A stretch of DNA of 64,000 nt from Escherichia coli (lineage in GTDB: Bacteria; Pseudomonadota; Gammaproteobacteria; Enterobacterales; Enterobacteriaceae): assembly GCF_051903065.1 (NCBI RefSeq), contig NZ_CP178438.1; one strand, given 5' to 3'. Below are positions 11,635 through 60,875 of this stretch, in pieces. Below the pieces are notes generated by a model, which saw nothing but the letters and a program-made list of their open reading frames with translations, made no database searches and was not told the DNA's origin. Position 1 is the first letter of the stretch. Each line of letters opens with the position of its first letter. Made by a program: the position numbers and the translations under genes.

Positions 11635-13584
11635 TCAGCAGCGGCTTAAATCTGCCTGCGCCTGAGCCAGTTTTTCTGCCGCCTGACGTAACGGTTCCAT
11701 CAACGGCATGGTCCGTGCTGGAGCATGAAGGCGGAATCGCTGCAACTCTGTCGCGCCGACAGTCAACGCCGATTCCAGCCGATGTCGTTTGGCGGCCATT
11801 TTCGCCATTACCGCTTGTCTTTCTGCAGGCGTTACCGCTTCGTTCGGCCTGAACACAAAACGGCGTTCACAGCTCGCTTTCCAGTCGATGACCGCCTGGG
11901 TCAGATGATCACCAAACCCTTTAACTTGCTTAACCCCACGACGGGTAACATCCGCGGCTGTTTCAATACCAAAAGACCGTAACGCCGCTTTACGCGCAGG
12001 GCCAACGCCGGGAATAGAGGCAGCATCAATAAAAAATCCCTCCAGAAACTTCTGCTTCTGCCGTTCCCTTGCAGTGTCGTGAAGTGCTGCCAGAGCACGT
12101 TTTTCTTCTTCCGGTAACCCGAGAATTTCGTCCTTCATTTTTTCGAGCATCGTCCGTTTGGCGATAAAACCTTCCAGCCCGCCCAACTGTTGGATCTGGT
12201 TGACTAAATGGTCATAGTCCATTTTCGCGCGATTAAATGCCTCACGGCGTTGCTGGATTTCTGCTTTATAAGCTTTGCTTGTCAGACTGCCAATAATCCA
12301 GATAGCCGCCAGCACAGGAACCAAAATAATATAACGCGGTTCTGCCTGAAGGCCGCAAAGCAACAGCGATAACGCTGACAGTGCGATCTCAATCAGAATG
12401 ATGTATTCGCGCCGTAACAGGCCTAAAGGAAGCGGCCTGCCAGTCGGTTGGAAATGATCGGGTAATGGCAATTGCAATGCTGGCGGTGCTACTGACGCCA
12501 TCACCATCGCCCAGACTTTCGCCAGCACAAAATCACCGCCGGTGGTAATGACCTCTTCACCGAGATCAATAAAATAGATAACGCCTTGATTATCCAGCGT
12601 ACACCACGGGCAGTCAGTCAAATGAGCGGGGTAAACATGCATTGCTGAAACGGTACATTTCTTTAACTGTTGGCGTAGAGAGTCCAGTGCCGCTACCCAC
12701 GCTTTAGCCGTCGGACGCCCCGTTGCCACGCCACTTTCCGTGAATGCCTGCTGAAACATGGCTTCAACATCGCCCGGTAACATCGACAGCGGAATAGATC
12801 GTGGCGGCGGTTTTAAACCACGCCGCTGATTATCTGACGCGTAGGCATAACGGAAATGGGCAATATCCGTCTCCAGCGCATTACCCGCATCAGAGATAAG
12901 CGGCACACCAGAATAAGGATGCCGCCCACCAAACAAGACGTGAAAAATCAGCAACGCAAGGCCAAAATTATCGTGATTTTCTGTGCGTTCAAAACCGACA
13001 AATGATGGCAAGGTTTGTAGCTCTGGCGGCGTAAAATGCGACACGCCAACTTCGCATAAATGCAACGTTCCATTGGCGTTAATCTGAAAGGAGTCGCTGT
13101 CGATCAACACCACTTTGCTGTCGCGACCTACCATAAAGCTGTTCTGGTTTACGTCACCCACGACGTGCCCGTGCTCGTGAACCGTAGCAAAAGATGAAGC
13201 AATATTACGCGCAACATAGAGTAGAAAATCCCACGCACAATGAGGGTAACTCTGGCGACGATGTGCCGGGCTATAGATCATATGAATCGGTTCTTTACCA
13301 GAAACTTTTGGCATCATAAAACCGATAACTTTTCCGCCTCGTCCACCGTGAAGCGTTGCCTGCGGCCAGGCGACATAATTCAGCAACTGTGCATCAGCTG
13401 TCGCAGCCATAAAGGCAAGTTTGTCCTGTTTTAAGGCGGGTGGCGGCGTGTGATAAATCTTAGCGACGCTATCGACAAACTCCTCGATATCATAAACCGC
13501 GCCTTCGCCACCTTTGCCCAGTTCACGGCCTGGCGTAACGCACTCACCAGTAGCAGTATATAAAGTGGGTTTCATGGTAACCAC
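11635..13584 (-). CDS. yegI: Membrane-anchored eukaryotic-like Ser/Thr protein kinase YegI with C-terminal tandem helix-hairpin-helix motifs, ~648 aa
   Basis: Gly-rich loop GKGGEGAVY and VAKIY lysine motif; two hydrophobic helices mid-protein; C-terminal IPGVGPARKAALRSFG and VKGFGDHLTQ HhH-like motifs. Alternative start 3 codons downstream (MKPTLY). Confidence 0.8.
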   Translation of the reverse strand: MVTMKPTLYTATGECVTPGRELGKGGEGAVYDIEEFVDSVAKIYHTPPPALKQDKLAFMAATADAQLLNYVAWPQATLHGGRGGKVIGFMMPKVSGKEPIHMIYSPAHRRQSYPHCAWDFLLYVARNIASSFATVHEHGHVVGDVNQNSFMVGRDSKVVLIDSDSFQINANGTLHLCEVGVSHFTPPELQTLPSFVGFERTENHDNFGLALLIFHVLFGGRHPYSGVPLISDAGNALETDIAHFRYAYASDNQRRGLKPPPRSIPLSMLPGDVEAMFQQAFTESGVATGRPTAKAWVAALDSLRQQLKKCTVSAMHVYPAHLTDCPWCTLDNQGVIYFIDLGEEVITTGGDFVLAKVWAMVMASVAPPALQLPLPDHFQPTGRPLPLGLLRREYIILIEIALSALSLLLCGLQAEPRYIILVPVLAAIWIIGSLTSKAYKAEIQQRREAFNRAKMDYDHLVNQIQQLGGLEGFIAKRTMLEKMKDEILGLPEEEKRALAALHDTARERQKQKFLEGFFIDAASIPGVGPARKAALRSFGIETAADVTRRGVKQVKGFGDHLTQAVIDWKASCERRFVFRPNEAVTPAERQAVMAKMAAKRHRLESALTVGATELQRFRLHAPARTMPLMEPLRQAAEKLAQAQADLSRC

Positions 13585-14333
13585 AGCGCCAGTGCCAACG
13601 TTTTATCATCATCGGTACGCTCGTTTACCGCCGGGCTGGACAAAAACTGCTTTAACAATTCAGGTAATAAATCGAGCTGTTCCTGCGTTGCTGCCGCCAG
13701 TCCATTGAAAAAAGGGGTAAAGAAAGGCACATGCGGAGAATTATCCAACATATTTAACGCCAGTCGCTGGATACCATCCGTAAATGCTGCAACTTTATGC
13801 ACACGCTCAGTGCTGGTGAAAGTTTCCAGTCTGGAAACAGCATCTTCATCGCTAATGAAATGCGTCATATTGGCATATTCACCCACCATCGGCGTGAGCG
13901 GCAGTTCCAGACCACGACCAAAATCCACCACTACACCGCCGTCGCCAATTTGCATAATCAATGTGCCGTTAGCCGATGAAATCAATCCCAGAAACGTGCA
14001 GGCAAAATCGCGAACTGCTAATGCTTTGGCTTCTGCCTCGGCAAAAAGTCGTTGACGAATGGTCAGTACCATATTTGTGGCGAGGACATCATTAAGCCCC
14101 AATTCACCGTCCTGTACTTTTTGCACCATAAACGCCATCGCTTCATTGACGGCGAGCTTCGCGCCTTCTCCTCCCTGCGAAACGCTACCTGCGCCATCAG
14201 CAAGGAACATCACCAGTAATGGCTGCTGGTCATTTAGCCAGGCAACCTGCATCTGGCAGGCATCCTGACAAGGTAAATCAGCGCTAATGTGCGACGTTCC
14301 AACAGCGGATGCATAAACCAGACGCCAGCTCAC
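13572..14333 (-). CDS. yegK: PP2C-family Ser/Thr phosphatase YegK, 253 aa
   Basis: 253-aa ORF, stop overlaps the yegI start by 13 nt; PP2C-like Asp-rich motifs ([15 protein letters not shown]). Confidence 0.8.
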
Positions 14334-14989: not shown

Positions 14990-15170
14990 AAGAAATCATT
15001 TCTTAGAGAATTATTGAGGTCCGGTATCATACCGACTGCAATAATGAAATAAGAGCAAACGAAGAAACTTTCAGAATTAGTCCCGGCGGCGCAGAAAATT
15101 TTGCTATTCGCCTCGCAAGAACGGAGAGCCGTCGATTGACACTAAGGGCGGAGTGACATAATTTCAGGAG

Positions 15171-15310
15171 TGAGGGTTAGGGAAAGGTTTCCCCCTCCCC
15201 CTGGTGTTCTTAGTAAGCCTGGAAGCTAATCACTAAGAGTATCACCAGTATGATGACGTGCTTCATCATAACCCTTTCCTTATTTAAGGCCCCTTCCTCG
15301 GGAGGGGCTT
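15171..15310 (+). ncRNA. sibA: SibA antitoxin sRNA, antisense to ibsA (ends approximate)
   Basis: Sigma70 promoter TTGACA (15136-15141), 17-nt spacer, TAATTT (15159-15164). Transcript fully overlaps ibsA on the opposite strand and ends at a GC hairpin plus T-rich tract near 15285-15310. Confidence 0.6.
15210..15269 (-). CDS. ibsA: Type I toxin IbsA, 19-aa hydrophobic peptide MMKHVIILVILLVISFQAY
   Basis: Hand-translated minus-strand ORF; too short for the ORF track. Matches the Ibs toxin family. Confidence 0.75.
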   Translation of the reverse strand: MMKHVIILVILLVISFQAY

Positions 15311-15504
15311 TCCCGTTTCAGCATCCCGCTGAAATCGTCGGCTTACCTCCTTTCGCCATGCATGCAGTCTATCGCTGACTTGCGGATAAAATAGTTTCCA
15401 GTGTGATTATTGCGTAACGTCTCGCAAAGAATATTTGCTGGCAGGATCGCAGACTGCAAAGCCTGCAGATTGACAATCTGACCGTGAAGGCATACTTTCA
15501 GGAG

Positions 15505-15640
15505 TGAGGGTTGAGCGGGGTTTCCCCCGCCCTGGTAGTCTTAGTAAGCTGGCCAGCTAATGACTAAGAGCACCACGATGATGAGTAGCTTCATCATGAC
15601 CCTTTTCTTATTAAAGGATGACAAAATAATACAAATCACT
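15505..15640 (+). ncRNA. sibB: SibB antitoxin sRNA, antisense to ibsB (ends approximate)
   Basis: Second copy of the Sib repeat. Promoter TTGACA (15470-15475), 17-nt spacer, TACTTT (15493-15498). Overlaps ibsB. Confidence 0.55.
15541..15597 (-). CDS. ibsB: Type I toxin IbsB, 18-aa hydrophobic peptide MMKLLIIVVLLVISWPAY
   Basis: Hand-translated minus-strand ORF in the second Sib/Ibs repeat unit. Confidence 0.75.
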   Translation of the reverse strand: MMKLLIIVVLLVISWPAY

Positions 15641-15763
15641 TAAAAATCATCGCATTACACGAATTTGCGGTTAAATAATAGACTACAAAGTGCGACAAAA
15701 CGCAACATATGCAGTCACTATGAATCAACTACTTAGATAGTACTAGTGACCTGTAACAGAGCA

Positions 15764-15806
15764 TTAGCGCAAGGTGATTTTTTGTCCTCTTGCGCTAATT
15801 TTTTGT
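15764..15806 (+). terminator. Candidate rho-independent terminator
   Basis: 10-bp inverted repeat TTAGCGCAAG / CTTGCGCTAA (15764-15773 / 15789-15798) followed by TTTTTTG. The 15-nt loop is long, so confidence is moderate. Confidence 0.4.
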
Positions 15807-15961
15807 CATCAAACATGTCGTTCTCCAGAGAAGCATAAAGCCTTGCAATCAAGTGCAAAGCTTTGTGTACCAGAGTTTTTCCTCATCAACTACCACAAGT
15901 ATCGATCGATTGAGACTTGGATGATAGACTTCATGCCTTTCAGAACTCATTGATTACATAA

Positions 15962-16324
15962 ATGTTAAAGCTATTTGCAAAGTACACCTCGATTGGTGTG
16001 CTGAACACACTTATACACTGGGTGGTTTTTGGTGTATGTATCTATGCCGCGCATACCAATCAGGCTCTGGCAAACTTCTCAGGTTTCGTTGTGGCTGTGA
16101 GCTTTAGCTTCTTCGCGAATGCAAAATTCACATTCAAAGCATCGACTACAACGATGCGCTACATGTTATATGTCGGGTTCATGGGAACACTGAGTGCTAC
16201 TGTTGGATGGGCTGCTGATAAGTGCTCGCTTCCTCCAATTATCACTCTTATCACCTTCTCCGCCATCAGCCTGGTGTGCGGTTTCGTCTATTCAAAGTTC
16301 ATTGTCTTTAGGGATGCGAAATGA
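15962..16324 (+). CDS. gtrA: GtrA-family bactoprenol-glucose flippase, 120 aa
   Basis: 120-aa four-helix membrane protein; near-identical to phage P22/SfV-type GtrA as I recall it ([20 protein letters not shown]...). Confidence 0.9.
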
Positions 16325-17241
16325 AAATATCTCTGATTGTTCCTGTCTTCAATGAAGAAGATGCGATACCAATTTTCTATAAAACGGTACGTGAATTCGA
16401 AGAGTTGAAGCCTTATGACGTCGAAATTGTATTCATAAATGACGGAAGCAAAGACGCCACGGAATCAATTATTAACGTTCTGGCTGTTTCAGATCCGCTA
16501 GTTGTTCCGCTGTCATTTACACGAAACTTTGGTAAAGAACCAGCATTGTTTGCAGGGTTAGACCATGCAACGGGCGATGCTGTTATTCCTATTGATGTTG
16601 ACCTGCAAGACCCGATTGAGGTTATTCCTCATCTGATTGAAAAGTGGCAGGCAGGTGCCGATATGGTGCTGGCAAAACGTTCAGATCGTTCAACTGATGG
16701 AAGATTAAAACGGAAAACCGCTGAGTGGTTCTATAAGCTTCACAATAAAATAAGCAATCCAAAGATTGAAGAGAATGTCGGCGATTTCCGCCTGATGTCT
16801 CGAGAGGTGGTAGAAAATATCAAACTACTGCCAGAGCGTAACCTGTTTATGAAAGGCGTTTTATCTTGGGTTGGCGGTAAGACGGATGTTGTTGAATACA
16901 TCCGTGCTGAACGCGTTGCCGGAAGCACAAAATTCAATGGCTGGAAGCTATGGAACCTGGCGCTTGAGGGAATTACAAGTTTCTCGACCTTCCCCTTACG
17001 CGTGTGGACTTACATCGGCCTACTTGTTGCGGGACTCTCGTTCCTTTACGGGGTGTGGATGATTTTCGACACATTGGTGTTCGGTAATGCTGTCCGCGGA
17101 TATCCTTCTATTCTTGTATCTATTCTCTTTTTAGGTGGCATTCAGTTAATTGGTATTGGGGTGCTGGGAGAATACATCGGCAGAATTTACGTAGAAGTTA
17201 AAAATCGTCCTAGATATGTACTTAAAAAAATAAAAGGTTAG
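16321..17241 (+). CDS. gtrB: GtrB bactoprenol glucosyltransferase (GT2 family), 306 aa
   Basis: GT2 motifs (DGSKDAT, DVDLQD) and C-terminal TM helices; 4-nt overlap with gtrA. Confidence 0.9.
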
Positions 17242-17246
17242 AGAAT

Positions 17247-18623
17247 ATGCGCATTTCAAAAAATGAAAAATACCTTTCATTGATTATGATAGCATTTTAC
17301 TTGCCATTTTTATTATCTGATTTACCTTTTAGGGACGATCTAAGCAGGACTTATTGGGGTTTTGTTGGGTTGTCTCAATTAGGTAGACCATTGGCAGACA
17401 TTGTTTATAGTTTGGTTGGATTTGGCTATGAGGGTGTTAACCTCAGCCCTATGCCTAAAATTATAGCGCTATTAATAATATTATCGTCTGCGATATTTTC
17501 ATACAGAACGCTATTCAACTCAATAGGAGCAACCGGGTTACTCTCTTTATCTATTTTCTTTGCAAATCCATTTATTATTCAAAATTTTGCATATCAGTAC
17601 GACTGTTTTCCAATGGCTTTATCTATTTTATTGGCGACATTATCTGTATTATATAGACCAAGATCAAGCTATTTTTATTTTCTTAGCGCATCATTTTTAT
17701 TAACTAGCGCAATATCACTTTATCAAGCATCTATATTTATTGCGGCATCTTTATATTTATGTAAGATCACTATTTATTTCGTTAACGATAGAAATCGCAG
17801 AGATGTTTTTATAGAATGCATGCTTACTCTTTTGTCTTCTTTTTTCTCTATTGCATGTTACATGGTGATTTTACTTTTTGTAGAAAATGGCGTGTCAAAA
17901 CGAGCTAGCATTACAGGGCCAAGTGGCGTTATTAGCAATATCGAGTTCCTTTTGGATAGGTTAAATAGCCTTTACCACTCGGTTTATATTTTTTTTATTA
18001 TTTTGTCATTAGTATTAATATTCTCTCTCTTGAGGATTTTTATCCTAAAAAGATATATCAATTTATGCGTGATATTACTAATACTTGTTGCGCTGCTAGT
18101 CTCTTCCCTACTCCCATCTGTCATCCTTAAGGAAGGGTTCGCCGGACCAAGAGTTTTAATGTCTATTTGTTCGGTATTTATATTTATATCTATCATTGCA
18201 ACCGGAAAAGAAAAATACGTATACGCCATGGTGTTATCTGTTTTAATGATGCATTCCATGTCTATTTCATACGCATTTTCAGGTGACATTAAGGCACAAT
18301 ACGATAGATACTCGATGATATCATCTCTTGTTTATAAAGATATTGATAATTACGTGTCGTCAAATACAGCAAAAATATACATTTCTTGCAAATCAACCCC
18401 ATCACAAAGAGAGTACGTTTTCTATAAATTCAACAATCACATAGCATGGCTCAACCCAGAAGAGGCTTGGGCTATCAGGTTTTTCATAAGAAATAATGGC
18501 GAGAGCAGGGTGGTGCACTCATGGGATGAATGCTTTGATATAAATGGAGGTAAGATCGTTAAAGAAAATGCATTTTATAAAATGGTTGAAAATAAAAATT
18601 CTTACTATTTCATAATGAAATAA
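17247..18623 (+). CDS. gtrC: GtrC-type serotype-specific O-antigen glucosyltransferase (polytopic membrane protein), 458 aa
   Basis: Third gene of a gtr operon; highly hydrophobic and AT-rich with strong codon bias relative to its neighbours, typical of horizontally acquired gtrC-type genes. Target specificity cannot be called from sequence. Confidence 0.7.
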   Translation: MRISKNEKYLSLIMIAFYLPFLLSDLPFRDDLSRTYWGFVGLSQLGRPLADIVYSLVGFGYEGVNLSPMPKIIALLIILSSAIFSYRTLFNSIGATGLLSLSIFFANPFIIQNFAYQYDCFPMALSILLATLSVLYRPRSSYFYFLSASFLLTSAISLYQASIFIAASLYLCKITIYFVNDRNRRDVFIECMLTLLSSFFSIACYMVILLFVENGVSKRASITGPSGVISNIEFLLDRLNSLYHSVYIFFIILSLVLIFSLLRIFILKRYINLCVILLILVALLVSSLLPSVILKEGFAGPRVLMSICSVFIFISIIATGKEKYVYAMVLSVLMMHSMSISYAFSGDIKAQYDRYSMISSLVYKDIDNYVSSNTAKIYISCKSTPSQREYVFYKFNNHIAWLNPEEAWAIRFFIRNNGESRVVHSWDECFDINGGKIVKENAFYKMVENKNSYYFIMK

Positions 18624-18630
18624 ATATAGG

Positions 18631-18662
18631 CGGGGGGGGGGGTAACAATCCCCCGTCTTTTT
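18631..18662 (+). terminator. Rho-independent terminator after gtrC
   Basis: CGGGGGGGGGGG-TAACAAT-CCCCCG hairpin (G11 run pairing with C5) followed by TCTTTTTT. Confidence 0.6.
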
Positions 18663-18849
18663 TGCTACGGCAAGTGATTAATCGCAACAATTGATTATTA
18701 TTTATAACAAATGCGTCATCTACCGCTATTCGGGTGACATTTTCATTCCTTATCTAAAATACAATTAAATAATTAACAAATAATTAAACGAATTGCATGA
18801 AAAATACATTACCGAAAAGTTAGAATAGTGTGCGATTGAAAGTTAATAA

Positions 18850-21381
18850 CTATATAACGGATAGCGTTCTTATGTCATTGCTAGCTGGTGATGCCATAAC
18901 TATCTGTGTTACGTTAGCGCCAGACACCGTATACGTCAGAATTACGTTACCAACGGCTCCTATATTAAAGTTTTGTTTAGCTCCTGAGGTACCTATAGCT
19001 CTGGCATTCGTTAAAGTATACGTGCTTCCCGCAGTGAATCCTGTAGCAATTACAAATTGTTGACCAACTTTAAAAGGAACTGTCATTGTTGCGGATGTTG
19101 ACTCGACAGTAGCAAACGGCAGGCCAGGCTGTTTAACCCCCGTCACATCCCAGAACTCACAGTTACGCACCAATGCTCGACCAATTAAATCGCGAGTTAC
19201 AGGGAATGTTGTCTGGTCCTGTGATAAGAATGCTCCAACAATTTGCACGTTATCGAGCGTAATATCGTGTACTGTGGCCCCATCTATAGGACTTAACGTT
19301 GGTGATGCACTCCATAATTTACCACCCTTCATTTTGATACTTACAGGCCCGTTAGGGTCTGTCCCTCTAAAAGCGCGAATACTCTCAAATTTGCAATCTG
19401 TAAATTCATAGCTGCCGCGTTGGTTAGTTTCGAACAATGTATACGCCTCACCTGACACTCCGTGTCTTACATCACTGGCAACAACGCGCGGATTATGGCG
19501 GAATGATGCAGACGTGACAGAGAAAAATGGCGCGCAGACATCGTTAATAAGAATGTCTGTTGTATAACGCCCTGTAACAGCGCTCTCAGAGTCACTCATA
19601 TCCGAATATAGCGCTTTGAAGCGGGAGAAGTCTATGTTTAGACCTATTCCTGCACTTTTTGGTAATTGTCCAAAATCAAGCCCGTCAATAACAATTTTCT
19701 TAGGGAAATAAAGGGTGTTATCTCGAGCTACAGTTATTAATGTACCCGGATAAGTCAAGACGAAACCTGGATACATTTTAACATCTTTCAAGGTAACATT
19801 ATTGAATAACGTGGGGCTTATAGGCGACCCGCTACTAGGCCCTTGCCCAGCAGTAACAGCTGCGTTTATGATACCATTTCCGGGTGCGCCGCTGCGCAGG
19901 CCAGTTAACTTAATATTCTCCATGTATAAATCACCATCGAAGCCCCCCCCCAGCGTCAGAGCGAGTCGAAATAATATTACCAGGCTTATATGGTGAAGCA
20001 TTAAATATTGAATTGGTTACATACAAATCCCCGATACCAGAAGCGACGACACCATAAGTCCCAATATTACAGTCATTTATCTTTAAGTAGTTTTGGAAAG
20101 GTCTGTGGAAATCAATTCGACTAAGATCGCATCTTTCAAACCTTATATTGGCGCAATTATTGCTGCCTGTTGCCCCCCAGCCTTTACCATTTGCCGTTGC
20201 GTTTTTGATAGTGACATCCATAGAGTTAGATAGGGTTAAGGCGTATGCGTAGCTATCAACACCATCTATTAAGGCGTTTGCTATGGCTGGCGTGTATAAA
20301 CCATCAACTGTAACATCATAGCTTTCGTTAATTTCTATCCTGATATCATTAAAGTTTTGCGTTATCGGTCTGTTAATAAATGTCGTATTAACCAAGCGAA
20401 CTCGTGATGCTTGATTAATATAAATAATTCGATAATTCTTTGTAAGACTTTCGTCTATAGTCAATCCCTTAAGGTCTGCACATCTTTGCGTATTTTAAGT
20501 GCTTTAATTGATGTTGCGTTAGTTCCTAGGGCGTACTTAAGCGGGTTTTCAATGTATCCACGGTTATATACCCTGTTGAAATCTACGCGAGTTTGATTAA
20601 CGCCATCGAAAATAAACATAGGTTGAGATGTCGATAACTGAATGAAGCAACCGTCAAGGTCGGTATTAGAAGCCAAACCATCAAGATAGTTGCTACCTAT
20701 GTCGCGAGAGCCACTGGTGGACGTATTAACTCCATTAACTGGAGCCGAACCAGAACCGTATGTAACAGGGGCGACAGGCTGGCTAATAACAATTTGCCCT
20801 TTCCATGTAGCCGATGGTTTAAGCACACACCCGGTTAAATCCACATTTAAACTTTTAATATCAAGATAAGTATCACCATCTAGTAGAAAAGTTCCGTCAG
20901 ATTGCCTAACGTCTAAATTATTTGAATAAGCATAGTTCAGTGCCTTAGCTATGGCGGGAGCGTCATTTGTTACTCCATCACCAATAGCGCCAAACTCCTT
21001 CAACGTTACCCAGTATTTTACTTTCTCCAAGCTCTTTTGATATTGATCTGGGTCGTACTTCAGCACATTAGGAAAATAGAACTGCTGCGCACCATATGCA
21101 TCATAAACAGCCATAGAGTGGCCTTGCACAGTTACGAACTTGGCAATCTGTCCGTTATATACCGGATATCCAGCAGCGTTAATGATGATTGGTTGTGAAA
21201 CAGGAACGTGAGAACCATCCTCATTCTCCACATAAATCTGAATCTGGTTTTCAGGATTTACCGGGTCAGTGTCAATTTTTCCTATATAAATTTTGCCATT
21301 GGCAACCGCTTTAAAAGAACGTGCCATAGTGAAGAGTTGCGAAGGCATGCTTACCACAACATTTGCGGTGATATCTGTCAT
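18850..21381 (-). pseudogene. P22-like phage tailspike gene broken into three reading-frame segments (306 + 177 + 383 aa)
   Basis: The N-terminal ~120 aa ([34 protein letters not shown]...VLKYDPDQY) is the conserved P22-family tailspike head-binding domain. Downstream segments are beta-helix-like. Frames switch near 20461-20464 and at a G9 run (C9 on + strand, 19943-19951). Confidence 0.7.
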
Positions 21382-21438
21382 TTAATTTGCTCCAGATTCA
21401 AGGAATCGCCGCAGCATGGCTACGGTGAATTTTGTGCA

Positions 21439-21462
21439 TAAAAAACCCAGCCGAAGCTGGGT
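21439..21462 (-). terminator. Candidate rho-independent terminator upstream of the tailspike gene
   Basis: On the minus strand: CCCAGC-TTCG-GCTGGG hairpin followed by TTTTTTAT. Confidence 0.4.
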
Positions 21463-21522
21463 CGTTGCGTTGGTTATCTGTAAGTAGTTATGTGCTTAGG
21501 TAATTTGTATTAGCTCAGACCT

Positions 21523-22690
21523 GATCTGACAGTTACCGGTTATTTATACAGGTATCTGTCAGATTACATCCGGCTTAAATTTTTCTCGGCCCAGATGCGC
21601 TTTCCATCAAGTAACGTTTCCATTGGCGTCCGCCCATTGCGCATTTTTCCCTGATGGGTTCGTTCATTATTATAGTGAGCCAGCCACTCATCAAGATCCG
21701 ATTGCAATGTATCGAGAGCTCCATACAACTTTTTACGGAACGTCACCTGATAAAATTCGTTCAGTATCGTCTTATGGAACCGCTCGCAGATGCCATTTGT
21801 CTGCGGTGACATCGCTTTAGTTTTCGTGTGGTCTATATCATTTATTGCCAGATATAGCTGGTAGTCATGCTGTTCCACCTTACCGCAGTACTCTGTTCCT
21901 CTGTCGGTCAGTATTCTCAGCATTGGCAGGTTTTGCGATTCGTAAAATGGCAACACACGATCATTCAGCAGGTCAGCAGCCGTGATCGGTGTTTTGGTTA
22001 CATACAGTTTACAGTGTGCGACCTTCGAGTAGGTGTCAACGAACGTTTGCTGATAAATGCGTCCGACTCCTTTCAGATTACCCACGTAGAACGTATCCTG
22101 AGAGCCCAGATAACCGGGATGTGCGGTTTCGATTTCACCACACGCTTCGTCATCGCTGGCTTTACGCTCCAGAACGACTATCTGTGCTTCTGTCAGCTCG
22201 ATACCGTCACGGGCTACTTTTTCCTCCAGTGCTTTCAGCCGCTTTTTGAAGTTCTCAAGGTTATGCCGCAGCCAGACAGAACGTACACCCCTTCCTGAGA
22301 TGAAGACACCTTGCTTACGTAGCTCATTGCTGGTCCGGTGCTGGCCATGCGCAGGGTACGCGATGGCATAATCAACAACGGCCCGCTCAGTTGCATCATC
22401 GGTACGATTTTTTAGATTGGGCGTTCGTCGAGTGCGGTTAATCAGTGCATCCACCCCACCTTCATCAGCCAGTTCGCGATAACGGTAAAACGTATCACGC
22501 GAGACGCCCATGATTTTGCAGGCCTTCGAAACATTGCGGAGTTCTTCAGCCAGATTGAGCAAACCGGCTTTGTGTTTGATGACGGGATTGTTAGTATGAA
22601 GCATGAGAGTTACCTCGTGTTTTGTATAAGGATTCGACACCCATATCAAAACCGGTAACTCTCAACCTTTCAAGGCTCAGTGTCAGATCA
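21523..22690 (-). mobile_element. IS481-family insertion sequence (~1.17 kb)
   Basis: Terminal inverted repeats TGATCTGACA at 21523-21532 and, as reverse complement, 22681-22690. Single DDE transposase gene inside. No obvious target-site duplication. Confidence 0.6.
21564..22604 (-). CDS. IS481-family DDE (rve) transposase, ~346 aa
   Basis: N-terminal HTH region plus rve-type catalytic core ending in the IS481-family signature SPQTNGICERFHKTI. Start taken at MLHTNN; the track ORF begins 15 codons upstream at 22649. Confidence 0.75.
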   Translation of the reverse strand: MLHTNNPVIKHKAGLLNLAEELRNVSKACKIMGVSRDTFYRYRELADEGGVDALINRTRRTPNLKNRTDDATERAVVDYAIAYPAHGQHRTSNELRKQGVFISGRGVRSVWLRHNLENFKKRLKALEEKVARDGIELTEAQIVVLERKASDDEACGEIETAHPGYLGSQDTFYVGNLKGVGRIYQQTFVDTYSKVAHCKLYVTKTPITAADLLNDRVLPFYESQNLPMLRILTDRGTEYCGKVEQHDYQLYLAINDIDHTKTKAMSPQTNGICERFHKTILNEFYQVTFRKKLYGALDTLQSDLDEWLAHYNNERTHQGKMRNGRTPMETLLDGKRIWAEKNLSRM

Positions 22691-22755
22691 AGTCGCGACT
22701 AATACATGTACCCGTCATTCAGACGATTCCCGACAGTGTTTCATAATTCCTCCAT

Positions 22756-22773
22756 TTTTCTCCCTTATTGGCT
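22756..22773 (+). promoter_or_regulatory. BaeR-binding box in the mdtA promoter
   Basis: TTTTTCTCCCTTATTGGC matches the BaeR consensus TTTTTCTCCATDATTGGC as I recall it, ~55 bp upstream of the mdtA start and ~65 bp from the IS481-family end. Confidence 0.55.
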
Positions 22774-22825
22774 GGCTACACTAGTATCATTCCGCGAAAC
22801 GTTTCAGGAAGAGAAACTCTTAACG

Positions 22826-41522: not shown

Positions 41523-41975
41523 TTATTCGTCTGAATCTAAAACATACTTTGTGAAGTATTCCTTTAACTGAGTTTCAGGAAGAGTGATTAGTGTCTCGAC
41601 GATATCGGGCTGTTGTAACTTGCCAAATAAACAGCGTAAAAGTTTCAATTGCTGCTGCGGATTTTCCACAATCAACGCAATAACCAACGATACCGCCACG
41701 TCATTATCATCATCCGCTTGCTGAAAATGAACTTTATTTGTTGGCCTTAACAGATAAATGGCTGACGACTTAGCATGAATCGCCTCACAATGCGGTATTG
41801 CAATGGCGTGCTGCTCAAGCATTATCCCGGTAGGGAATTCTGCTTCTCTGGCAATTAATGCCTGTGGCCAGGTATCATGAACCACACCTTTGGCGAGCAT
41901 CTCATTACCGATATGGGTTAAAACTTCGCTACGATCGACAAAAGAAATTCCGCTACGAACAAACAGGTTAGTCAT
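41523..41975 (-). CDS. gatA: PTS galactitol-specific EIIA, 150 aa
   Basis: 150-aa ORF of EIIA (mannitol/fructose-type) fold. Confidence 0.9.
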   Translation of the reverse strand: MTNLFVRSGISFVDRSEVLTHIGNEMLAKGVVHDTWPQALIAREAEFPTGIMLEQHAIAIPHCEAIHAKSSAIYLLRPTNKVHFQQADDDNDVAVSLVIALIVENPQQQLKLLRCLFGKLQQPDIVETLITLPETQLKEYFTKYVLDSDE

Positions 41976-41984
41976 ATACCGTCC

Positions 41985-44185
<2,201 letters not shown>

Positions 44186-44295
44186 TTAAATGTCGAGATA
44201 ACGATCACAAAAACGACAATATGAAAATTAATCCAGAATGACAGGCAAAAAAACGGCCTCCCGGGGGAAGCCGTAACGAAGTGTGCGTGTTTTTA

Positions 44296-44350
44296 TGCCG
44301 GATGCGGTGTAAACATACGTGGCAGTGCTATGTAGGCATGATAAGACGCT
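44296..44350. repeat. REP-like sequence, left part of a REP palindrome split by the IS
   Basis: GCCGGATGCGGTGTAAACA... then GTAGGCATGATAAGACGCTTCC abuts the IS left end. Confidence 0.5.
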
Positions 44351-44404
44351 TCCTGAACTGCACCCCAAATGTTGGACATAATCTGACATCTGAAGGTGCA
44401 GTTT

Positions 44405-44926
44405 ATGAAACATTCATTTGAAGTAAAACTTGCCGCTGTAAATCATTACCTGGCCGGTCATGCAGGCATCATTTCTACGGCAAAACTCTTTCAACTTTCT
44501 CACACCAGCCTCTCACACTGGATTAATCTTTTTCTTCTTCACGGTCCTCAGGCACTGGATTGCAGACACAAGCGTAGCTATTCTCCTGAAGATAAACTTT
44601 GCGTGGTTCTTTATGCTCTCGGGCATTCTGAGTCTCTACCCCGGGTAGCTGCCCGGTTTAACATTCCCAGCCACAACATGGTTAAAAACTGGATAAAAGG
44701 CTACCGCAAATCTGGTAATGAGGCCTTTATCAGGCGCAGGAAGGAGAAAAGCATGACCCGTTCTGATGATACCCATGAAAACGAGGCAAACATGACGCCG
44801 GAAGAGATGAAGAATGAGCTGCGTTATCTTCGCGCAGAAAATGCATATCTGAAAGCCATGCAGGAGCATCTCCTGGAAAAAAAGCGCCAGGAGCTGGAGA
44901 AAAAACGAAAGTCATCCAGAACCTGA
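44405..44926 (+). CDS. IS150-like transposase OrfA (HTH), 173 aa
   Basis: Start at MKHSFEVKLAAVNHY; C-terminal leucine-zipper-like region; an A6 run (44900-44905) near the 3' end is the probable -1 frameshift site. Confidence 0.75.
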   Translation: MKHSFEVKLAAVNHYLAGHAGIISTAKLFQLSHTSLSHWINLFLLHGPQALDCRHKRSYSPEDKLCVVLYALGHSESLPRVAARFNIPSHNMVKNWIKGYRKSGNEAFIRRRKEKSMTRSDDTHENEANMTPEEMKNELRYLRAENAYLKAMQEHLLEKKRQELEKKRKSSRT

Positions 44927-45030
44927 AGTGCGGACACTGCCAGTCTGACCTGTTAAAGGCTGCAGGGCTGGCCAGAAGCACGCTGTACTACCAGCTGTCA
45001 CTGCAGAAGGCTAAGGACAAGTATGCTGAT

Positions 45031-45774
<744 letters not shown>

Positions 45775-45787
45775 AGTTCAGTTCAGC

Positions 45788-45866
45788 CAGCGTCGCATCA
45801 GGCATAGGTTACCGGATGCAGTGTAAACGCCTTATCCGTCCTACGGGGTGGTGCTGTTCGTATGAG
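45788..45866. repeat. REP/BIME sequences (right part of the split REP plus a further REP)
   Basis: GCCAGCGTCGCATCAGGCAT... and CCGGATGCAGTGTAAACGCCTTATCCGTCCTAC immediately right of the IS. Confidence 0.6.
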
Positions 45867-55739: not shown

Positions 55740-56774
55740 TTAGTCGTATTTCACGTTGATTAGTGCGGTTGCCTCCAGTGCGCCAGATTTAACTTTGTTT
55801 GTATCGTAGACGTAGTAACTGGCTGTTATCGGAATTGAAACCGTTGTATCTGTAAGTTTTAACTTTGCCGCAATTTCTTTTAAATTTGTGTATCCTTTAC
55901 TGCTGTTAGTGATATTTAAAAGTGTGACTGGCGAACCATTACTTTCAAGAATAAATCCTACGCCATTATCTTCCGCACCTTTCAGTATTGTGTTGCTGTT
56001 GGTTAACAAGTCAGAACTTGATAAATACACCTGCATTTTCCGTGATGTTTGATTTTGTTGACCTAATAAATTTTTACAACGCAGAATAATATCCCCTTTT
56101 TTACTATTTACTGTTGCTTTGTTACCTGTGGCTGGTAATTGTGAAACGGGAATACTCTCTAAAGTAATTAATAAATCGTCCGGTTTGCAGGTTGTGGTTA
56201 TCGGGTTGTATGACAATGTCAGATTAAAGGAATAGACACCTGCATTTTGTGCCAATGCATTTCTGTAGCTATTTACACATGCATCCCATGACTTGCCACC
56301 TAATAAACACAGTAGAAATTGTACTGCGGCACTCCCGCGTGTCGATGATGAAGCACTGGATAATGTCGCAACACCATTAATCATCACTGAACCGCCGCCC
56401 CCCGCAGAAACATTCACTTTTGCATTACTGGCCGCAGGTGTCACCGTTACCGAATAACCACTGGTGAAACTGGTCTGATTATTTGACAACGTGATGTTAT
56501 TTTTATTGGTCCATTCAAAATGTAAATTTAATTTAATAGTATCGTTATAAAGTCCAACAATAATATCCGACGGGCTCATAGGGGTGATAGTATTTGTACT
56601 TACGCATGACGAATCATTAAAATTATGCTCATAGGTCGCCATTTGTGTTTGAGTAAGTGCAAAATCCCCCTGAACAACCAAATTGTGCTGAACAGATAAC
56701 TCACTATAACATGCTGCATAGCTCACTGGCATAACCATCATCATTAATATAAATAGCATTATGCGAATTTTCAT
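55740..56774 (-). CDS. yehA: Chaperone-usher fimbrial tip adhesin-like protein YehA, 344 aa
   Basis: 344-aa secreted protein, last gene of the yehDCBA cluster. Confidence 0.8.
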   Translation of the reverse strand: MKIRIMLFILMMMVMPVSYAACYSELSVQHNLVVQGDFALTQTQMATYEHNFNDSSCVSTNTITPMSPSDIIVGLYNDTIKLNLHFEWTNKNNITLSNNQTSFTSGYSVTVTPAASNAKVNVSAGGGGSVMINGVATLSSASSSTRGSAAVQFLLCLLGGKSWDACVNSYRNALAQNAGVYSFNLTLSYNPITTTCKPDDLLITLESIPVSQLPATGNKATVNSKKGDIILRCKNLLGQQNQTSRKMQVYLSSSDLLTNSNTILKGAEDNGVGFILESNGSPVTLLNITNSSKGYTNLKEIAAKLKLTDTTVSIPITASYYVYDTNKVKSGALEATALINVKYD

Positions 56775-56789
56775 AGAACCACCTGACTA

Positions 56790-59270
56790 TTACTGGCAAA
56801 TATAATTTCTACTTTCATCAATCTCTTTACCGAAGGTGATTGTGCATGAAAGTCCTTGTTGCTTATTAATTGCCACATTAACCGATGGCGGTACTTCATT
56901 GGTGCGAATAAATAACTGACTTCCCTGGCCGACAACGCCAATATTATGACCGTGGATATCATTGACTTCATAACCAAACGTTAATGGTTGCCCATCCGCT
57001 CTTAACGCTTTTATAAACCAGGGCTTGCGCTGATCGGTATCAAAATTAACCAGTACAACCGCGCCGCGATAAGGGGCGGCAATTTTCCGGTTGCCACGTA
57101 ATTCTGCTTCGCTATCGCTTTGCGACACATCCAGCATCAGGTGATTTTCCCGATAAGGTGTCATTCCGTCGTATACCACCACTCCATTACGGTTTGTTGT
57201 GCGATATTTTTGCCCATTGACATAGGCATCTTTAATTCCTGGCGCATTCATCACAGCAAACGTTTCGGAAAGACGGTTCGCCAGATTAACGCCACCCGAC
57301 CAGGCGACAATGCCCCCTGAAACACTGGCTCCAGCCTGTCGATAAGTACTCGACTGACTATAACTGCCATTCACTGTTGCCACCGGCGCGTTCCAGGTTA
57401 AATTCGCTCCAGCTGTCGTTTCATTTCCCTGATGTTGATGACTCAGGTTGACACCATAATTGAACTGTTCCCGACTCCCTACTGTTCCTGATAATCCCGT
57501 ATTATTTGAGGCAAACCCCTGATCATCAAACGTCGTTGAGTTAGACATATATATTTGCCGACGAGGCGTCGAAACGTCATCACCCCAATCAAAGGGAATC
57601 GATATAAAAATATTAAAACGTTTCTCTTCATGATGATTCTCGTCATAAGCCTGGCTTGCCGCGAGGGTATAGCTTATCCGTCGCAGGTTGTTGGAATAAC
57701 TCAACTGATAATCCTTACTACTGCCGCTACGCCCCCAGTAATCTCGCCATAACGTACTTAATGACACAGAACCCCAACCTTCTGGCAATGACTGGCTCAT
57801 ATTGGCGGAAAAGCTATTTTTGCGACCAAAATCATTCTGGTAATAATCGGCAATGTCATAGACATCGTTTTCATTACGGCGATAATTATCTTTATTGTTT
57901 GCCCAAACGTGATCATTAAATGTCCGGTAATCACGCGACGAATAACGCCAGGCCGCCAGACCAAAACGCGTCGACGTTTGGCTCACAAATTTGTTGTAGG
58001 CAATTTGATAACTTTGCCCGTCAAACACATCGCCGTTGTCTTGTTTACTATGCGACTTCGTGGCATCGACGGAAATGGCACCAATGCGTGTATTCCAGCC
58101 AGTCCCCAAAGTGAACGCGTAATAATTATTCGCGACCATCGAGCCACCATACAGCGTCAATAAGTTATTAAAACCACACTGATAACCCGCCTGGACAAAA
58201 TCACTTTGTTTGCTCGCCCCTTCAATATGGCTACGACCCGCCGCAAAATCATATTTCGACACGCCGGGTTGCAGCATATTTGGCACGGCTGCATAAGGCA
58301 CCAGATAGGTGGTTACCGAACCGTCCGCCTCTTTCACGCTGACATCAAGATCTGCTCCACCACCGGCCAACTGCAAATCTGTAATCGCAAACGGGCCAGG
58401 AGGAACCTCTTTCTGATAAACCACAAAACCATTCTGTTCAATAGTTATCAGCGCGTTACTCTGAGCAATCCCCTGCACCCGTGGCGTAAAATTTTGTTTC
58501 GAGTTAGGCAACATCTGCATATCACGAAACAACCGCACACCTCTGAAGCGAACAGAATCAAAAATATCGCTTGATGTGTACATATCACCCACGCGAAGCG
58601 TGCCGAGAAGTTGGGCAAATCCACGTTCCAGATACAGGGTATTGCTTTTCCACACCCCTGGATTGTTATTTGTTTTACTGAAACTGGCATCAGAATGCAG
58701 TTGCCACCCCAGTAAATTTAACCCGCTGTTAAAACGTACATATGTACTCTTACTATTACCCGACGCTTTATAGTCACTGTAATACTGACTCACATAATAA
58801 GAGGTATAAAACGCATTAATACCCCGCTCCCAGTTTTCCGGTGGAACATAGCCACTTTCCAGTTCTTCCACCCAGGCCTGCGGGACACTGAAATCGAGAC
58901 GAAAGACCCCGATATCCCAGGTATAGCTCCCACCCTGAACAAGTTGCTCAAATGTTAAACATTGCTTTCCACTGGCGAAGTTATCGGTGTTAATGCCTAA
59001 CCGCTTGATAATTTCCCTTGATAAACAAGTTTCTTGCGGGTTGTCTTTAACAATGATCTCATATTTCCCGCGCCATTTCTTATTGACATAAATATCGATG
59101 TCATACTGCCCCGGTAAGGGTTGATTATCATCAAGACGAATATTTGCAACCTGCTGGTCTTTCATTCCACCTATCATAAAATGGGTATCAAAGGTTTCTT
59201 CAGCTGCATAAGCTTCAATGCCGAGCAATAACGCTACGATTGCTGATGCAAGTGGGGTCATTCTCAACAT
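56790..59270 (-). CDS. yehB: Fimbrial outer-membrane usher YehB, ~826 aa
   Basis: Usher-family beta-barrel; start taken at MLRMTPLASA (track ORF 5 codons longer). Confidence 0.85.
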   Translation of the reverse strand: MLRMTPLASAIVALLLGIEAYAAEETFDTHFMIGGMKDQQVANIRLDDNQPLPGQYDIDIYVNKKWRGKYEIIVKDNPQETCLSREIIKRLGINTDNFASGKQCLTFEQLVQGGSYTWDIGVFRLDFSVPQAWVEELESGYVPPENWERGINAFYTSYYVSQYYSDYKASGNSKSTYVRFNSGLNLLGWQLHSDASFSKTNNNPGVWKSNTLYLERGFAQLLGTLRVGDMYTSSDIFDSVRFRGVRLFRDMQMLPNSKQNFTPRVQGIAQSNALITIEQNGFVVYQKEVPPGPFAITDLQLAGGGADLDVSVKEADGSVTTYLVPYAAVPNMLQPGVSKYDFAAGRSHIEGASKQSDFVQAGYQCGFNNLLTLYGGSMVANNYYAFTLGTGWNTRIGAISVDATKSHSKQDNGDVFDGQSYQIAYNKFVSQTSTRFGLAAWRYSSRDYRTFNDHVWANNKDNYRRNENDVYDIADYYQNDFGRKNSFSANMSQSLPEGWGSVSLSTLWRDYWGRSGSSKDYQLSYSNNLRRISYTLAASQAYDENHHEEKRFNIFISIPFDWGDDVSTPRRQIYMSNSTTFDDQGFASNNTGLSGTVGSREQFNYGVNLSHQHQGNETTAGANLTWNAPVATVNGSYSQSSTYRQAGASVSGGIVAWSGGVNLANRLSETFAVMNAPGIKDAYVNGQKYRTTNRNGVVVYDGMTPYRENHLMLDVSQSDSEAELRGNRKIAAPYRGAVVLVNFDTDQRKPWFIKALRADGQPLTFGYEVNDIHGHNIGVVGQGSQLFIRTNEVPPSVNVAINKQQGLSCTITFGKEIDESRNYICQ

Positions 59271-59285
59271 AGGCAGCTCCTGCAA

Positions 59286-59960: not shown

Positions 59961-60040
59961 CTTAATGCCTCTTAAATTAAAAAGCCGCCATGGGGATAGC
60001 GGCCATGTTTATTACCTGGAGAAACTTGCAATTTTATTTA

Positions 60041-60583
60041 TTAATCCTGCGCCACACGCATAACCAGAGAAGATAACACATCACCTGATTGCACTGAGTT
60101 ATCTGTCAGTTTCAGGTATTTTGCTTTAAACGGAATAGCATATTGACCTTCCGCTGTTTTATAACTCTCAATATTAAAAGGTGCAGAAACATCCAGGACA
60201 TCGCTGTTATCACCTAAATAGAGATAGTAACCCACAGTATCGTTGCTACTGGCTATCGCCTTATCGTTACCAGTTATTTTATCGTTGGTAATCAACGAGA
60301 GTTTTACACCAGCAACTTCTTTCGGGCAGCTAATTTTTAACATGCTACTGGTTACACCGACTGCATCATCATAGGTAGAATATTTAGCTTTACCTTCAAA
60401 GACAGTGGTTGGTACAGTTGGCATATTAATACTTACTGAATCACCACCCGCTTCGAATTTACACGGAGATTCTGCAATATTTCCTTTAATGGTTAATGTT
60501 CCGGTATCAACGTCTGCAGCAAATACTCCAGCGCTCATAAAAAAAGAAGAAAAGACAGCGACAGCAATAATTGAACGTTTCAT
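60041..60583 (-). CDS. yehD: Major fimbrial subunit YehD, 180 aa
   Basis: Signal peptide and pilin-like C-terminal strand; preceded by a very AT-rich region. Confidence 0.8.
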   Translation of the reverse strand: MKRSIIAVAVFSSFFMSAGVFAADVDTGTLTIKGNIAESPCKFEAGGDSVSINMPTVPTTVFEGKAKYSTYDDAVGVTSSMLKISCPKEVAGVKLSLITNDKITGNDKAIASSNDTVGYYLYLGDNSDVLDVSAPFNIESYKTAEGQYAIPFKAKYLKLTDNSVQSGDVLSSLVMRVAQD

Positions 60584-60848: not shown

Positions 60849-60875
60849 AAATGCAATTAAAATCAGGTTGCCAAA

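Follow-up and report, generated by a model that had tools for sequence, protein, structure and literature searches.

Analysis of the window (the whole 64-kb stretch of Escherichia coli DNA under study) showed that the locus is an ordinary, already annotated gtrABC operon, intact within a decayed P22-like prophage stump on an E. coli O38 chromosome. The stump covered 7.1 kb (15613-22705), was inserted at the sibB 3' end in the yegL-mdtA interval, and consisted of an att arm, the three gtr genes, a tailspike gene with frameshifts and an IS481-family element. Outside the stump, the window was ordinary chromosome, with yegI-pphC-yegL-sibA/sibB on one side and mdtABCD-baeSR and the following genes on the other. 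The original prediction that the phage around the gtr genes is gone was essentially correct, except that the tailspike gene, 124 bp upstream of it, an att-proximal arm of ~350 bp and the IS481-family element remain (Table 1). Taken as a whole, the locus is probably best explained as the att-proximal end of a P22-like prophage that works by the Gtr mechanism, with the O38 O-antigen as acceptor and uniform expression from its own promoter.

Table 1 Features of the prophage stump and its chromosomal boundary, with positions in the window
Feature	Position	Strand	Description
sibB antitoxin sRNA repeat	15470..15612	+	Rfam RF00113, 133 bits, model positions 1-147 of 147, end at 15612
Phage att-proximal arm and gtr regulatory region	15613..15961	+	Assigned by homology (P22 and E. 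coli alignments)
gtrA	15962..16324	+	Small membrane protein, 120 aa; PF04138 1.3e-13, residues 7-116
gtrB	16321..17241	+	GT2 polyprenyl-phosphate glucosyltransferase, 306 aa; PF00535 4.6e-31
gtrC	17247..18623	+	Serotype-specific transferase with modelled GT-C fold, 458 aa; 33% GC cassette
Intrinsic terminator after gtrC	18628..18665	+	Hairpin and T-run
P22-type tailspike pseudogene	18850..21381	-	N-terminal head-binding domain and O38-associated receptor-binding domain
Tailspike upstream remnant with ant terminator	21382..21505	-	Cut by IS element; 92.7% P22 identity over 21413-21493
IS481-family insertion sequence	21506..22706	-	26-nt terminal inverted repeats at 21506-21531 and 22681-22706

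The gtrABC genes and the surrounding prophage remnant

All three gtr genes were full length, as predicted, and each product matched its own family. GtrA also matched phrog_2224 (GtrA-like, 1e-70, full length) in PHROGs, demonstrated 82% identity to P22 GtrA and 100% identity to the GtrA of the E. coli BL12 prophage, and is the proposed flippase for undecaprenyl-phosphate-glucose. GtrB was 87% identical to P22 GtrB, matched GtrB in PHROGs at 3.8e-181 and the solved Synechocystis GtrB (5EKP) at E = 2e-89, and contained C-terminal hydrophobic segments at residues 230-254 and 260-286. Disabling substitutions in the GtrB catalytic motifs, which the original prediction had named as evidence that would count against it, were looked for by alignment and none was found. 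The 12 residues listed as essential in the solved homologue (PMC4728340) were all conserved (12/12), namely D92/D94 (DXD), R120, R123, K130, A134, Y138, D155, R198, L210, A214 and R288. GtrC matched PF14264 (5.3e-31, model positions 3-317 of 317) and GtrC-like proteins in PHROGs (2.5e-44), and retained every family-invariant residue. Assigned to the Glucos_trans_II family, it is polytopic, carries an acidic motif in its first periplasmic loop and was modelled with a GT-C fold. The families of the three products, with the modelled fold of GtrC, are those of a gtrABC O-antigen glucosylation operon. On NCBIfam, nothing above the cut-off was obtained for GtrA or GtrC, and GtrB produced sub-threshold matches only (PgfS, ArnC).

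The three genes formed a tightly packed unit with one terminator, the att arm at 15613 on one side and the convergent tailspike gene on the other, as expected of an operon. The tight junctions were confirmed, with the gtrB ATG overlapping the gtrA stop by 4 bp and a gap of 5 bp between gtrB and gtrC, and the clean terminator expected 3' of gtrC was recovered as a hairpin (18628-18658) with T6 behind it (-23.8 kcal/mol, z = -3.2). The 5' stem arm of this terminator holds a G homopolymer of variable length, G10 here, G17 in strain 33F4 and G4 in the Enterobacter hormaechei homologue; homopolymer length differences (G10 vs G17, C8 to C10) may partly represent assembly errors.

The gtrC gene was markedly AT-rich, with 33.0% GC and 31.8% GC3 against 50-55% in the flanking chromosomal genes; the corresponding values were 45.2% and 52.1% for gtrA and 42.9% and 40.4% for gtrB. 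Its proposed nature as a separately shuffled module was borne out by breakpoints against the E. coli BL12 prophage at 17217/17218 and 18853/18854, with cassette flanks that were 97.8% and 83.7% identical; the third gene of the BL12 prophage was unrelated to gtrC (BLASTP E = 0.003). The closest gtrC (91% nucleotide identity) was in an E. hormaechei prophage, whose gtrA and gtrB showed 76% and 81% identity, respectively, and comparison of that gtrC with the one in E. coli gave a dN/dS of 0.19. GtrC was only about 25% identical to any characterised GtrC. In the phage collection, no isolated phage covered more than about 31% of the island and no close GtrC was present, the best matches reaching 28-34% identity across no more than half of the protein. 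What is new here is the gtrC allele, and the Gtr system itself is well known.

The tailspike pseudogene is 2532 bp long, the length of the intact 843-aa BL12 gene, from which it differs by two 1-bp indels: a -1 frameshift near 20473, which every carrier has, and a +1 frameshift within a C9 run (about 19943-19951), which is variable among carriers. The three ORF pieces were colinear on phrog_16586, the N-terminal 120 aa matched many tail-spike PHROGs (E = 1e-68 to 1e-110), and the head-binding region demonstrated 74% nucleotide identity to P22. Compensation of one frameshift by the other was considered and rejected, because the frame opened by the start codon ends at 20461, just past the first shift, and the second shift sits in the length-variable C run. 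Homology to BL12 stops exactly at 21505. The combination typical of P22-like phages (Lederbergvirus), a gp9-type head-binding domain preceded by the ant/immI region, was present and, judging from this one surviving end, the remaining phage genome was probably of the Lederbergvirus type.

The chromosomal integration target was sibB, whose repeat carries the ibsB toxin ORF on the minus strand. The island begins directly after the last conserved sibB base (K-12 alignment break at 15612), so that the sibB terminator found in K-12 and the sequence upstream of ibsB are absent. In strain ET665, the same arm sequence starts at a prophage junction beside torT. The right island boundary is the IS481-family element, whose transposase matched NF033577 at 4.9e-83 and through which the phage DNA is joined directly to the chromosome upstream of mdtA. 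Inspection of the inverted repeats and comparison with K-12 revealed no target-site duplication at the element, and 143 bp of K-12-type chromosome were missing at this boundary. In the proposed history, a P22-like (Lederbergvirus-type) temperate phage would have entered the chromosome of an E. coli O38 strain at the 3' end of the sRNA gene sibB, and a later deletion bounded by the IS481-family element would have removed everything beyond the tailspike gene. The lysogenic-conversion operon gtrABC, lying at the att-proximal prophage end, would be the part that survived intact.

Retention of the operon

The suggestion in the original prediction that retention of the operon reflects selection was not established. 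The carriers, among them strains 23CRST027, ECNB21-M121 and 33F4, differed by only about 0.1-0.2% across the island, so the intactness could reflect a young remnant, and selection for gtrABC retention is a plausible, weakly supported reading. Any benefit may lie in phage exclusion or antigenic change. Across three carriers, gtrABC contained 1 SNP, against 7 SNPs plus indels in the adjacent tailspike pseudogene (one-sided p about 0.03, our own binomial estimate on small numbers and with a comparable background in the shared block). The contrast is unconvincing because the background density in the shared block was comparable and, the numbers being too small as well, SNP counts were dropped as a test of purifying selection. 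Strain 2018-05-2CC, from another lineage, contained a second, independent gtrABC-only stump at the identical site; its gtrAB shared only 84% nucleotide identity with the pair here, and its gtrC was a different one. Two diverged backgrounds also combined the island region with identical O38 rfb clusters. The second stump and the rfb co-occurrence offer indirect support for selection, and att-proximal position and linkage explain both too.

These two E. coli backgrounds, 1-3% apart in neighbouring DNA, share near-identical blocks at O38 rfb and at the gtr island; the block around the island measures 27-35 kb, and the rfb block lies 47 kb away. Other O38 lineages carry alternative modification modules beside the same tailspike type. 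One tentative reading, possible and short of likely, is that the stump has ceased to be a phage gene set and is now a fixed chromosomal, constitutively expressed O-antigen modification locus travelling with the O38 rfb cluster. If this is true, homologous recombination would spread the serogroup and its side-branch modification together and would define an unrecognised glucosylated O38 subtype.

It is unlikely that the operon is a neutral recent leftover, kept intact by the short time elapsed and by an att-adjacent place away from IS-mediated deletion, and maybe silent or with no phenotype. The island sequences of the three carrier groups do differ at only about 10 sites in 7 kb, and the tailspike gene has merely its two 1-bp frameshifts without a large deletion, as a recent leftover would have. 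The independently derived 2018-05-2CC stump, however, also retains exactly gtrABC at the same site, and the core promoter and all catalytic residues are intact here. The SNP comparison falls on both sides, with the single gtrABC change standing against those in the neighbouring pseudogene, yet at a density not clearly lower than in the surrounding shared block; the island region could also have hitch-hiked with a strongly selected rfb locus.

Probable O38 acceptor and predicted expression

This gtrC allele was present in 6 of 5,426 complete E. coli genomes, all of them O38: it occurred in every genome whose O38 wzy was 100% identical (6/6) and was absent from the remaining 5,420. Among 12 O38 genomes, 11 had a full-length tailspike receptor domain, each of these carrying O38 wzy, and no non-O38 genome had the domain at full length. 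The O38 strain NCTC9038 has neither this gtrC allele nor this type of tailspike. The O38 wzx/wzy cluster, 47 kb from the island, is annotated without pseudogene flags, and a partial copy of GtrC is labelled E. coli O38:H39 by its source; the 90%-identity cluster to which this GtrC belongs has 47 members. The O38 O-antigen is most likely the acceptor of GtrC, because the linked tailspike receptor domain and the gtrC allele occur only in O38 genomes. Following the general Gtr model (summarised in PMC7685785), GtrB would move glucose from UDP-glucose onto undecaprenyl phosphate at the cytoplasmic face, GtrA would flip UndP-Glc into the periplasm, and GtrC, through its putative GT-C fold, would link the glucose to one particular sugar within the O-antigen repeat. 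A literature search, including the Liu et al. review and its supplements, found no published E. coli O38 O-antigen structure or O38 gtr report. The specificity of GtrC is not predictable from sequence at its low identity to characterised GtrC proteins, but use of another acceptor (e.g. another surface glycan) or transfer of a non-glucose sugar is very unlikely given the tight confinement of the allele and the linked receptor domain to O38 genomes and the closeness of GtrB to P22 GtrB.

Upstream of the operon, a strong hairpin and T-run were present at about 15762-15812 (-26.6 kcal/mol, z = -4.2). When the region upstream of gtrA was aligned with those of P22 and three E. coli gtr operons, only one GATC (15904-15907) was seen; it lies within the -35 region, which a 17-nt spacer separates from the -10 element TAGACT (15925-15930). 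The transcription start predicted from P22 homology lies about 25 nt upstream of gtrA. Compared with the P22 gtr regulatory anatomy (PMC2909390), a ~74-bp block with the OxyR(A) and OxyR(B) half sites and GATC1-3 was missing here and in the three other E. coli gtr operons, so the region is not of the Dam/OxyR phase-variable Salmonella type. Since the Salmonella switch is absent, constitutive expression is predicted, and the P22 core promoter by itself is constitutively active (349 MU; PMC2909390). The operon would be transcribed uniformly from its own sigma-70 promoter. Phase variation of a functional operon under Dam methylation and OxyR, the ON/OFF switching of Salmonella P22, was rejected as extremely improbable: the one GATC, equivalent to P22 GATC4, does lie beside a partial OxyR(C)-like half site, but phase variation needs paired GATCs inside two alternative OxyR sites (PMC2909390), the block that holds them is missing, and the S. 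Choleraesuis gtr SCB67_I operon, with only the -35/GATC4 and -10 elements, did not phase-vary (PMC3688519).

If the operon is active, this O38 lineage would show a modified O-antigen invisible to wzx/wzy-based in-silico serotyping, with possible effects on susceptibility to phages, reactivity with O38 antiserum and recognition by the immune system. The locus leaves the current understanding of Gtr systems unchanged. It is a natural example of att-adjacent conversion genes outliving their phage, of gtrC cassettes swapped independently of gtrAB, across genera too, and of a non-mobile remnant still able to spread with the flanking chromosome near the rfb hotspot.

Comparison with known systems

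The locus resembled the P22 gtrABC operon (O-antigen factor 1 glucosylation) in gene order and in its place between the tailspike gene and attP, the layout of the P22 right end being ant terminator, tailspike, gtrC, gtrB, gtrA and attP. GtrA, GtrB and the core promoter geometry (GATC in the -35, 17-nt spacer, -10) were also shared with P22, whose proteins have been studied experimentally, whereas GtrC was only 25% identical to that of P22, the OxyR A/B half sites and GATC1-3 were lacking, the host carries the E. coli O38 O-antigen and only a stump of the phage is left.

The cryptic prophage CPS-53/KpLE1 of E. coli K-12, located at argW, contains intS-yfdG-yfdH-yfdI with the integrase retained. 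It is likewise a degraded prophage that keeps a gtrAB-type pair and a third membrane protein gene beside att, while the stump described here is at sibB, has lost the integrase and carries a third gene of a different family or allele. Related argW prophages were found, and the intact BL12 prophage also lies at argW.

Serotype-converting phages of Shigella flexneri integrate at thrW. By description, SfII, SfV, SfX and others share the att-adjacent order gtrA-gtrB-gtr(type), with conserved A and B genes and an AT-rich type-specific third gene, and they differ from this locus in integration site (here sibB), GtrC allele and target O-antigen. No phase variation is reported for the S. flexneri phage gtr clusters (PMC3688519). 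The S. Choleraesuis SCB67_I operon and the GtrC family IV operons (Davies et al. 2013, PMC3688519) resemble the locus described here in keeping only the -35 (with GATC4) and the -10; they belong to another species and another GtrC family, and the absence of phase variation was measured there, whereas here it is predicted.

The E. hormaechei prophage module (GCA_023060285.1, locus L012) was colinear with window positions 15899-20997 at 82% nucleotide identity, with a GtrC 90% identical in amino acids and a homologous tailspike receptor domain. It differed in that its prophage appears intact, is of another type, encodes baseplate and sheath-initiator proteins and has another tailspike N-terminal adaptor, and its gtrA and gtrB were far more diverged from those of the stump than its gtrC.

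Integrity of the gtrABC operon

The locus is well supported as a textbook gtrABC operon for lysogenic conversion, kept in a 7-kb stump of a P22-like prophage, with an uncharacterised, O38-associated allele of GtrC. The identity and integrity of the gtr genes and the shuffling of the cassette are likewise well supported; gtr expression, the sugar, its acceptor and the selective value are what we infer. The original prediction described three full-length, tightly packed genes, a terminator after gtrC and a gtrC richer in AT than gtrAB and the chromosome, and all of this was borne out by the ORFs, the family matches, the terminal hairpin and the base composition.

Coordinates of the gtrABC operon and of its associated island features in the window
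Feature	Position	Strand or location	Description
Core promoter	GATC 15904-15907; -10 TAGACT 15925-15930		GATC corresponds to GATC4 of P22; 17-nt spacer
gtrA	15962-16324	+	ORF, 120 aa
gtrB	16321-17241	+	ORF, 306 aa; ATG overlaps gtrA stop by 4 bp
gtrC	17247-18623	+	ORF, 458 aa; 5-bp gap after gtrB
gtrC terminator	18628-18658, then T6	starts 5 nt past gtrC stop	hairpin, -23.8 kcal/mol, z = -3.2
Tailspike gene	18850-21381	downstream of and convergent with gtrC	2,532 bp, split into ORFs of 306, 177 and 383 aa
IS481-family element	21506-22706	right boundary of island	26-nt inverted repeats; transposase vs NF033577 4.9e-83

The RefSeq names already given to gtrA, gtrB, and gtrC are "bactoprenol glucosyl transferase", "glycosyltransferase family 2 protein", and "glucosyltransferase domain-containing protein", respectively. 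The gtrA product matched Pfam GtrA_DPMS_TM (1.3e-13) and PHROGs GtrA-like (1e-70), that of gtrB matched Glycos_transf_2 (4.6e-31) and GtrB (3.8e-181), and that of gtrC matched Glucos_trans_II (5.3e-31, model positions 3-317 of 317) and GtrC-like (2.5e-44). The GC contents were 45.2%, 42.9%, and 33.0% (GC3 52.1%, 40.4%, and 31.8%) for gtrA, gtrB, and gtrC, respectively, against 50-55% in the adjacent chromosomal genes. Past the gtrC stop codon, the 5' stem arm of the terminator holds a G10 homopolymer (18630-18639), against G17 in strain 33F4 and just G4 in the Enterobacter hormaechei homologue; the run may truly have expanded through hypermutability, or its length may be an artefact of long-read assembly.

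GtrA and GtrB were 82% and 87% identical to the P22 proteins. GtrB aligned over its full length with the Synechocystis GtrB of solved structure (E = 2e-89), and the 12 residues needed for activity in that enzyme (D94, D96, R122, R125, K132, A136, Y140, D157, R200, L212, A216, and R290; PMC4728340) were all kept, as D92, D94, R120, R123, K130, A134, Y138, D155, R198, L210, A214, and R288. Disabling substitutions in the GtrB catalytic motifs, which the original prediction had named as counter-evidence, were thus absent at these positions. A HMMER search of 1.8 billion representative proteins returned 766 relatives of GtrC, of which just 7 scored better than E = 1e-30. An alignment of 101 sequences including P22 GtrC gave seven invariant residues (D30, D31, R34, D119, Y159, Q160, and R302), and the window GtrC keeps every one of these together with eight near-invariant residues. 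Judged by their sequences, all three components of the Gtr pathway (model summarised in PMC7685785) look functional.

Boundaries of the prophage stump

The window is E. coli chromosome, ordinary throughout except for the stump, and the complete 15000-22800 segment was present in 6 of 5,426 complete genomes (megablast). Homology to K-12 ends at 15612 and picks up again at 22706, and 15613-22705 (7,093 bp) stands in place of 143 bp of K-12 DNA between ibsB/sibB and mdtA. None of the isolated phages covered more than about 31% of the island. The Rfam Sib model matched over its full length and ended at 15612 (15470-15612), so the left junction is the exact end of the conserved sibB repeat. The phage arm, beginning AAAGGATGACAAAATAA, also opens the prophage adjoining torT in strain ET665, which makes 15613 the phage end. 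On the right, phage DNA abuts the chromosome directly at the IS481-family element with no target duplication, the signature of an IS-associated deletion.

At the junction (15470-15620), the K-12 type sibB terminator is missing, and integration also removed DNA upstream of the ibsB toxin ORF, so that the 3' end of the antitoxin sRNA and the promoter region of the toxin now consist of phage DNA. The identical sibB-phage arm junction was found in 91 of the 5,426 genomes, and the cargo next to the arm differs among lambdoid prophages there (loci L017, 12140-16200, and L018, 12140-17500): the slot holds gtrABC in the window, retron Eco8 (reverse transcriptase and effector endonuclease) in 2022N21-074, and several hypothetical, DUF4236 and DUF2971 genes in M18. 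Directly left of the island, yegI, pphC, and yegL (kinase, PP2C phosphatase, and vWA-domain protein) form a tight operon with few-base overlaps (13572-13584 and 14330-14333); yegJ, between yegI and pphC in 2022N21-074, is absent.

The three tailspike ORFs are colinear on one PHROG, and the gene has the length of the intact 843-aa tailspike of the BL12 argW prophage. Relative to the BL12 gene, it lacks 1 bp near 20473 and has an extra 1 bp in a C9 run (19943-19951). The frameshift near 20473 is common to all carriers, and the C run varies (C9 in the window, C8 in ECNB21-M121, C10 in 33F4); the C8 version would match the reading frame of the intact BL12 homologue.

Exchange of gtrC, the O38 association and retention

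Sequence comparison with BL12 and E. hormaechei bore out the proposal that gtrC is a module shuffled separately from gtrAB. BL12 was 97.8% identical over 15832-17217 (upstream region, gtrA, and gtrB minus its last 8 codons) and 83.7% over 18854-21505 (tailspike to IS); the 1.64 kb between showed no DNA homology to BL12, whose third gene is unrelated to gtrC as protein (E = 0.003). The nearest GtrC (90% aa) lies in E. hormaechei prophages of another type, colinear with the window over all of 15899-20997, with identities of 91% for gtrC, 76% for gtrA, 81% for gtrB, and 77% for the tailspike. Since BL12 matches the gtrAB flank and E. hormaechei matches gtrC best, the nearest relatives of gtrAB and gtrC differ. 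The dN/dS of gtrC between E. coli and E. hormaechei was 0.19. In one such genome (GCA_023060285.1, locus L012, 6654-11744), gtrABC and the tailspike receptor domain are colinear with the stump (82% nt). The surrounding prophage has genes for a baseplate and a sheath initiator, and its tailspike carries a different N-terminal adaptor; the colinearity hints that this Enterobacter may have an O38-like O-antigen.

[quoted passage not shown] The O38 wzy occurred in 12 complete genomes, and the window gtrC allele was confined to the six (6/12) with 100%-identical wzy. A partial copy of the window GtrC bears the source label E. coli O38:H39. The tailspike receptor-binding region (18850-20460) was full length in 11 genomes, all O38; elsewhere, only three genomes matched, over a 540-bp fragment (34% of the query). 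Tailspikes of the P22-like phage type bind O-antigen, and with the full-length receptor region confined to O38 the donor phage would have been O38-specific. The acceptor of GtrC is most likely the O38 repeat unit, of which no E. coli structure was found in the literature searched.

The same tailspike type stands beside different modification modules in other O38 lineages: gtrAB and an unrelated 490-aa protein in the argW prophage of BL12, GS04, and BHD6, and an acyltransferase with a 471-aa protein in DAM and ANT, whose stump lies near sbcB. The 490-aa protein following gtrAB in BL12 is a membrane protein. A homologous receptor domain was present in every O38 lineage but NCTC9038, and the putative O-antigen modification modules linked to it are of three kinds, counting the window GtrC (loci L005, 10411-14555, and L010, 5393-10967).

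The further suggestion that retention of the operon reflects selection found thin evidence. Across three carrier groups (Ecuador, China, and Switzerland), gtrABC had 1 SNP (GtrA S40A), the tailspike 7 SNPs plus the C-run length changes, and the IS 2 SNPs; for 1 versus 7 the one-sided p was about 0.03 (our own binomial estimate), and the SNP density of the surrounding shared block was comparable to that of gtrABC. In favour of selection, strain 2018-05-2CC carries, again at sibB, an independent second stump that also keeps exactly gtrABC (gtrAB 84% nt identity, a different gtrC, then IS elements). The att-proximal position by itself accounts for gtr surviving deletion from the other side. A further point for selection is that the Swiss strains, 1-3% diverged from the window lineage across most of the DNA nearby, are near-identical to it in two blocks, the O38 rfb (about 18 kb) and 0-27 kb plus 30-35 kb of the window around the island, so this non-mobile remnant was moved or kept together with the O38 rfb by homologous recombination. 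This linkage fits co-selection and, equally, hitch-hiking near the rfb recombination hotspot.

The mosaic with the Swiss 33F4 lineage, which takes in 1-35000 of the window and the 50 kb to its left, is near-identical at O38 rfb-galF-wcaM..cpsG, yegH..mdtB, and mdtD..trhP, with 1-3% divergent stretches between, including a short patch in mdtB/mdtC (27-30 kb). The annotation of the near-identical strain 23CRST027 marks gatZ as frameshifted, places a copy of IS1397 (IS3-family), absent in 33F4, between gatY and fbaB, and shows IS903B and IS1A interrupting the fimbrial usher gene yehB; the corresponding window positions (about 41900-44200, 44300-45800, and 56700-61100) were derived from that annotation.

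Promoter architecture and comparison with P22

A strong hairpin followed by a T-run is predicted at about 15762-15812 (z = -4.2) and should shield the operon from read-through of the terminator-less sibB. When the DNA upstream of gtrA in the window was aligned with its counterparts in P22 and in three further E. coli gtr operons, the E. coli operons proved to keep the core promoter and leader and all to lack a block of about 74 bp that contains GATC1-3 as well as OxyR(A) and OxyR(B). In Salmonella P22, gtr phase variation involves four GATC sites and three OxyR half sites (PMC2909390), and the core promoter alone gave uniform expression of 349 MU, roughly 44% of what the full ON state gives. 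The equally reduced gtr of S. Choleraesuis showed no phase variation (PMC3688519). Because only the core promoter is kept, and given these two precedents, we predict constitutive expression of the window gtrABC without phase variation. The stump layout is the right-end order of P22 (ant terminator, tailspike, gtrC, gtrB, gtrA, attP), but P22 has GATC1-3 and OxyR(A)/(B), whereas the window operon has only the core promoter with its GATC4 equivalent.
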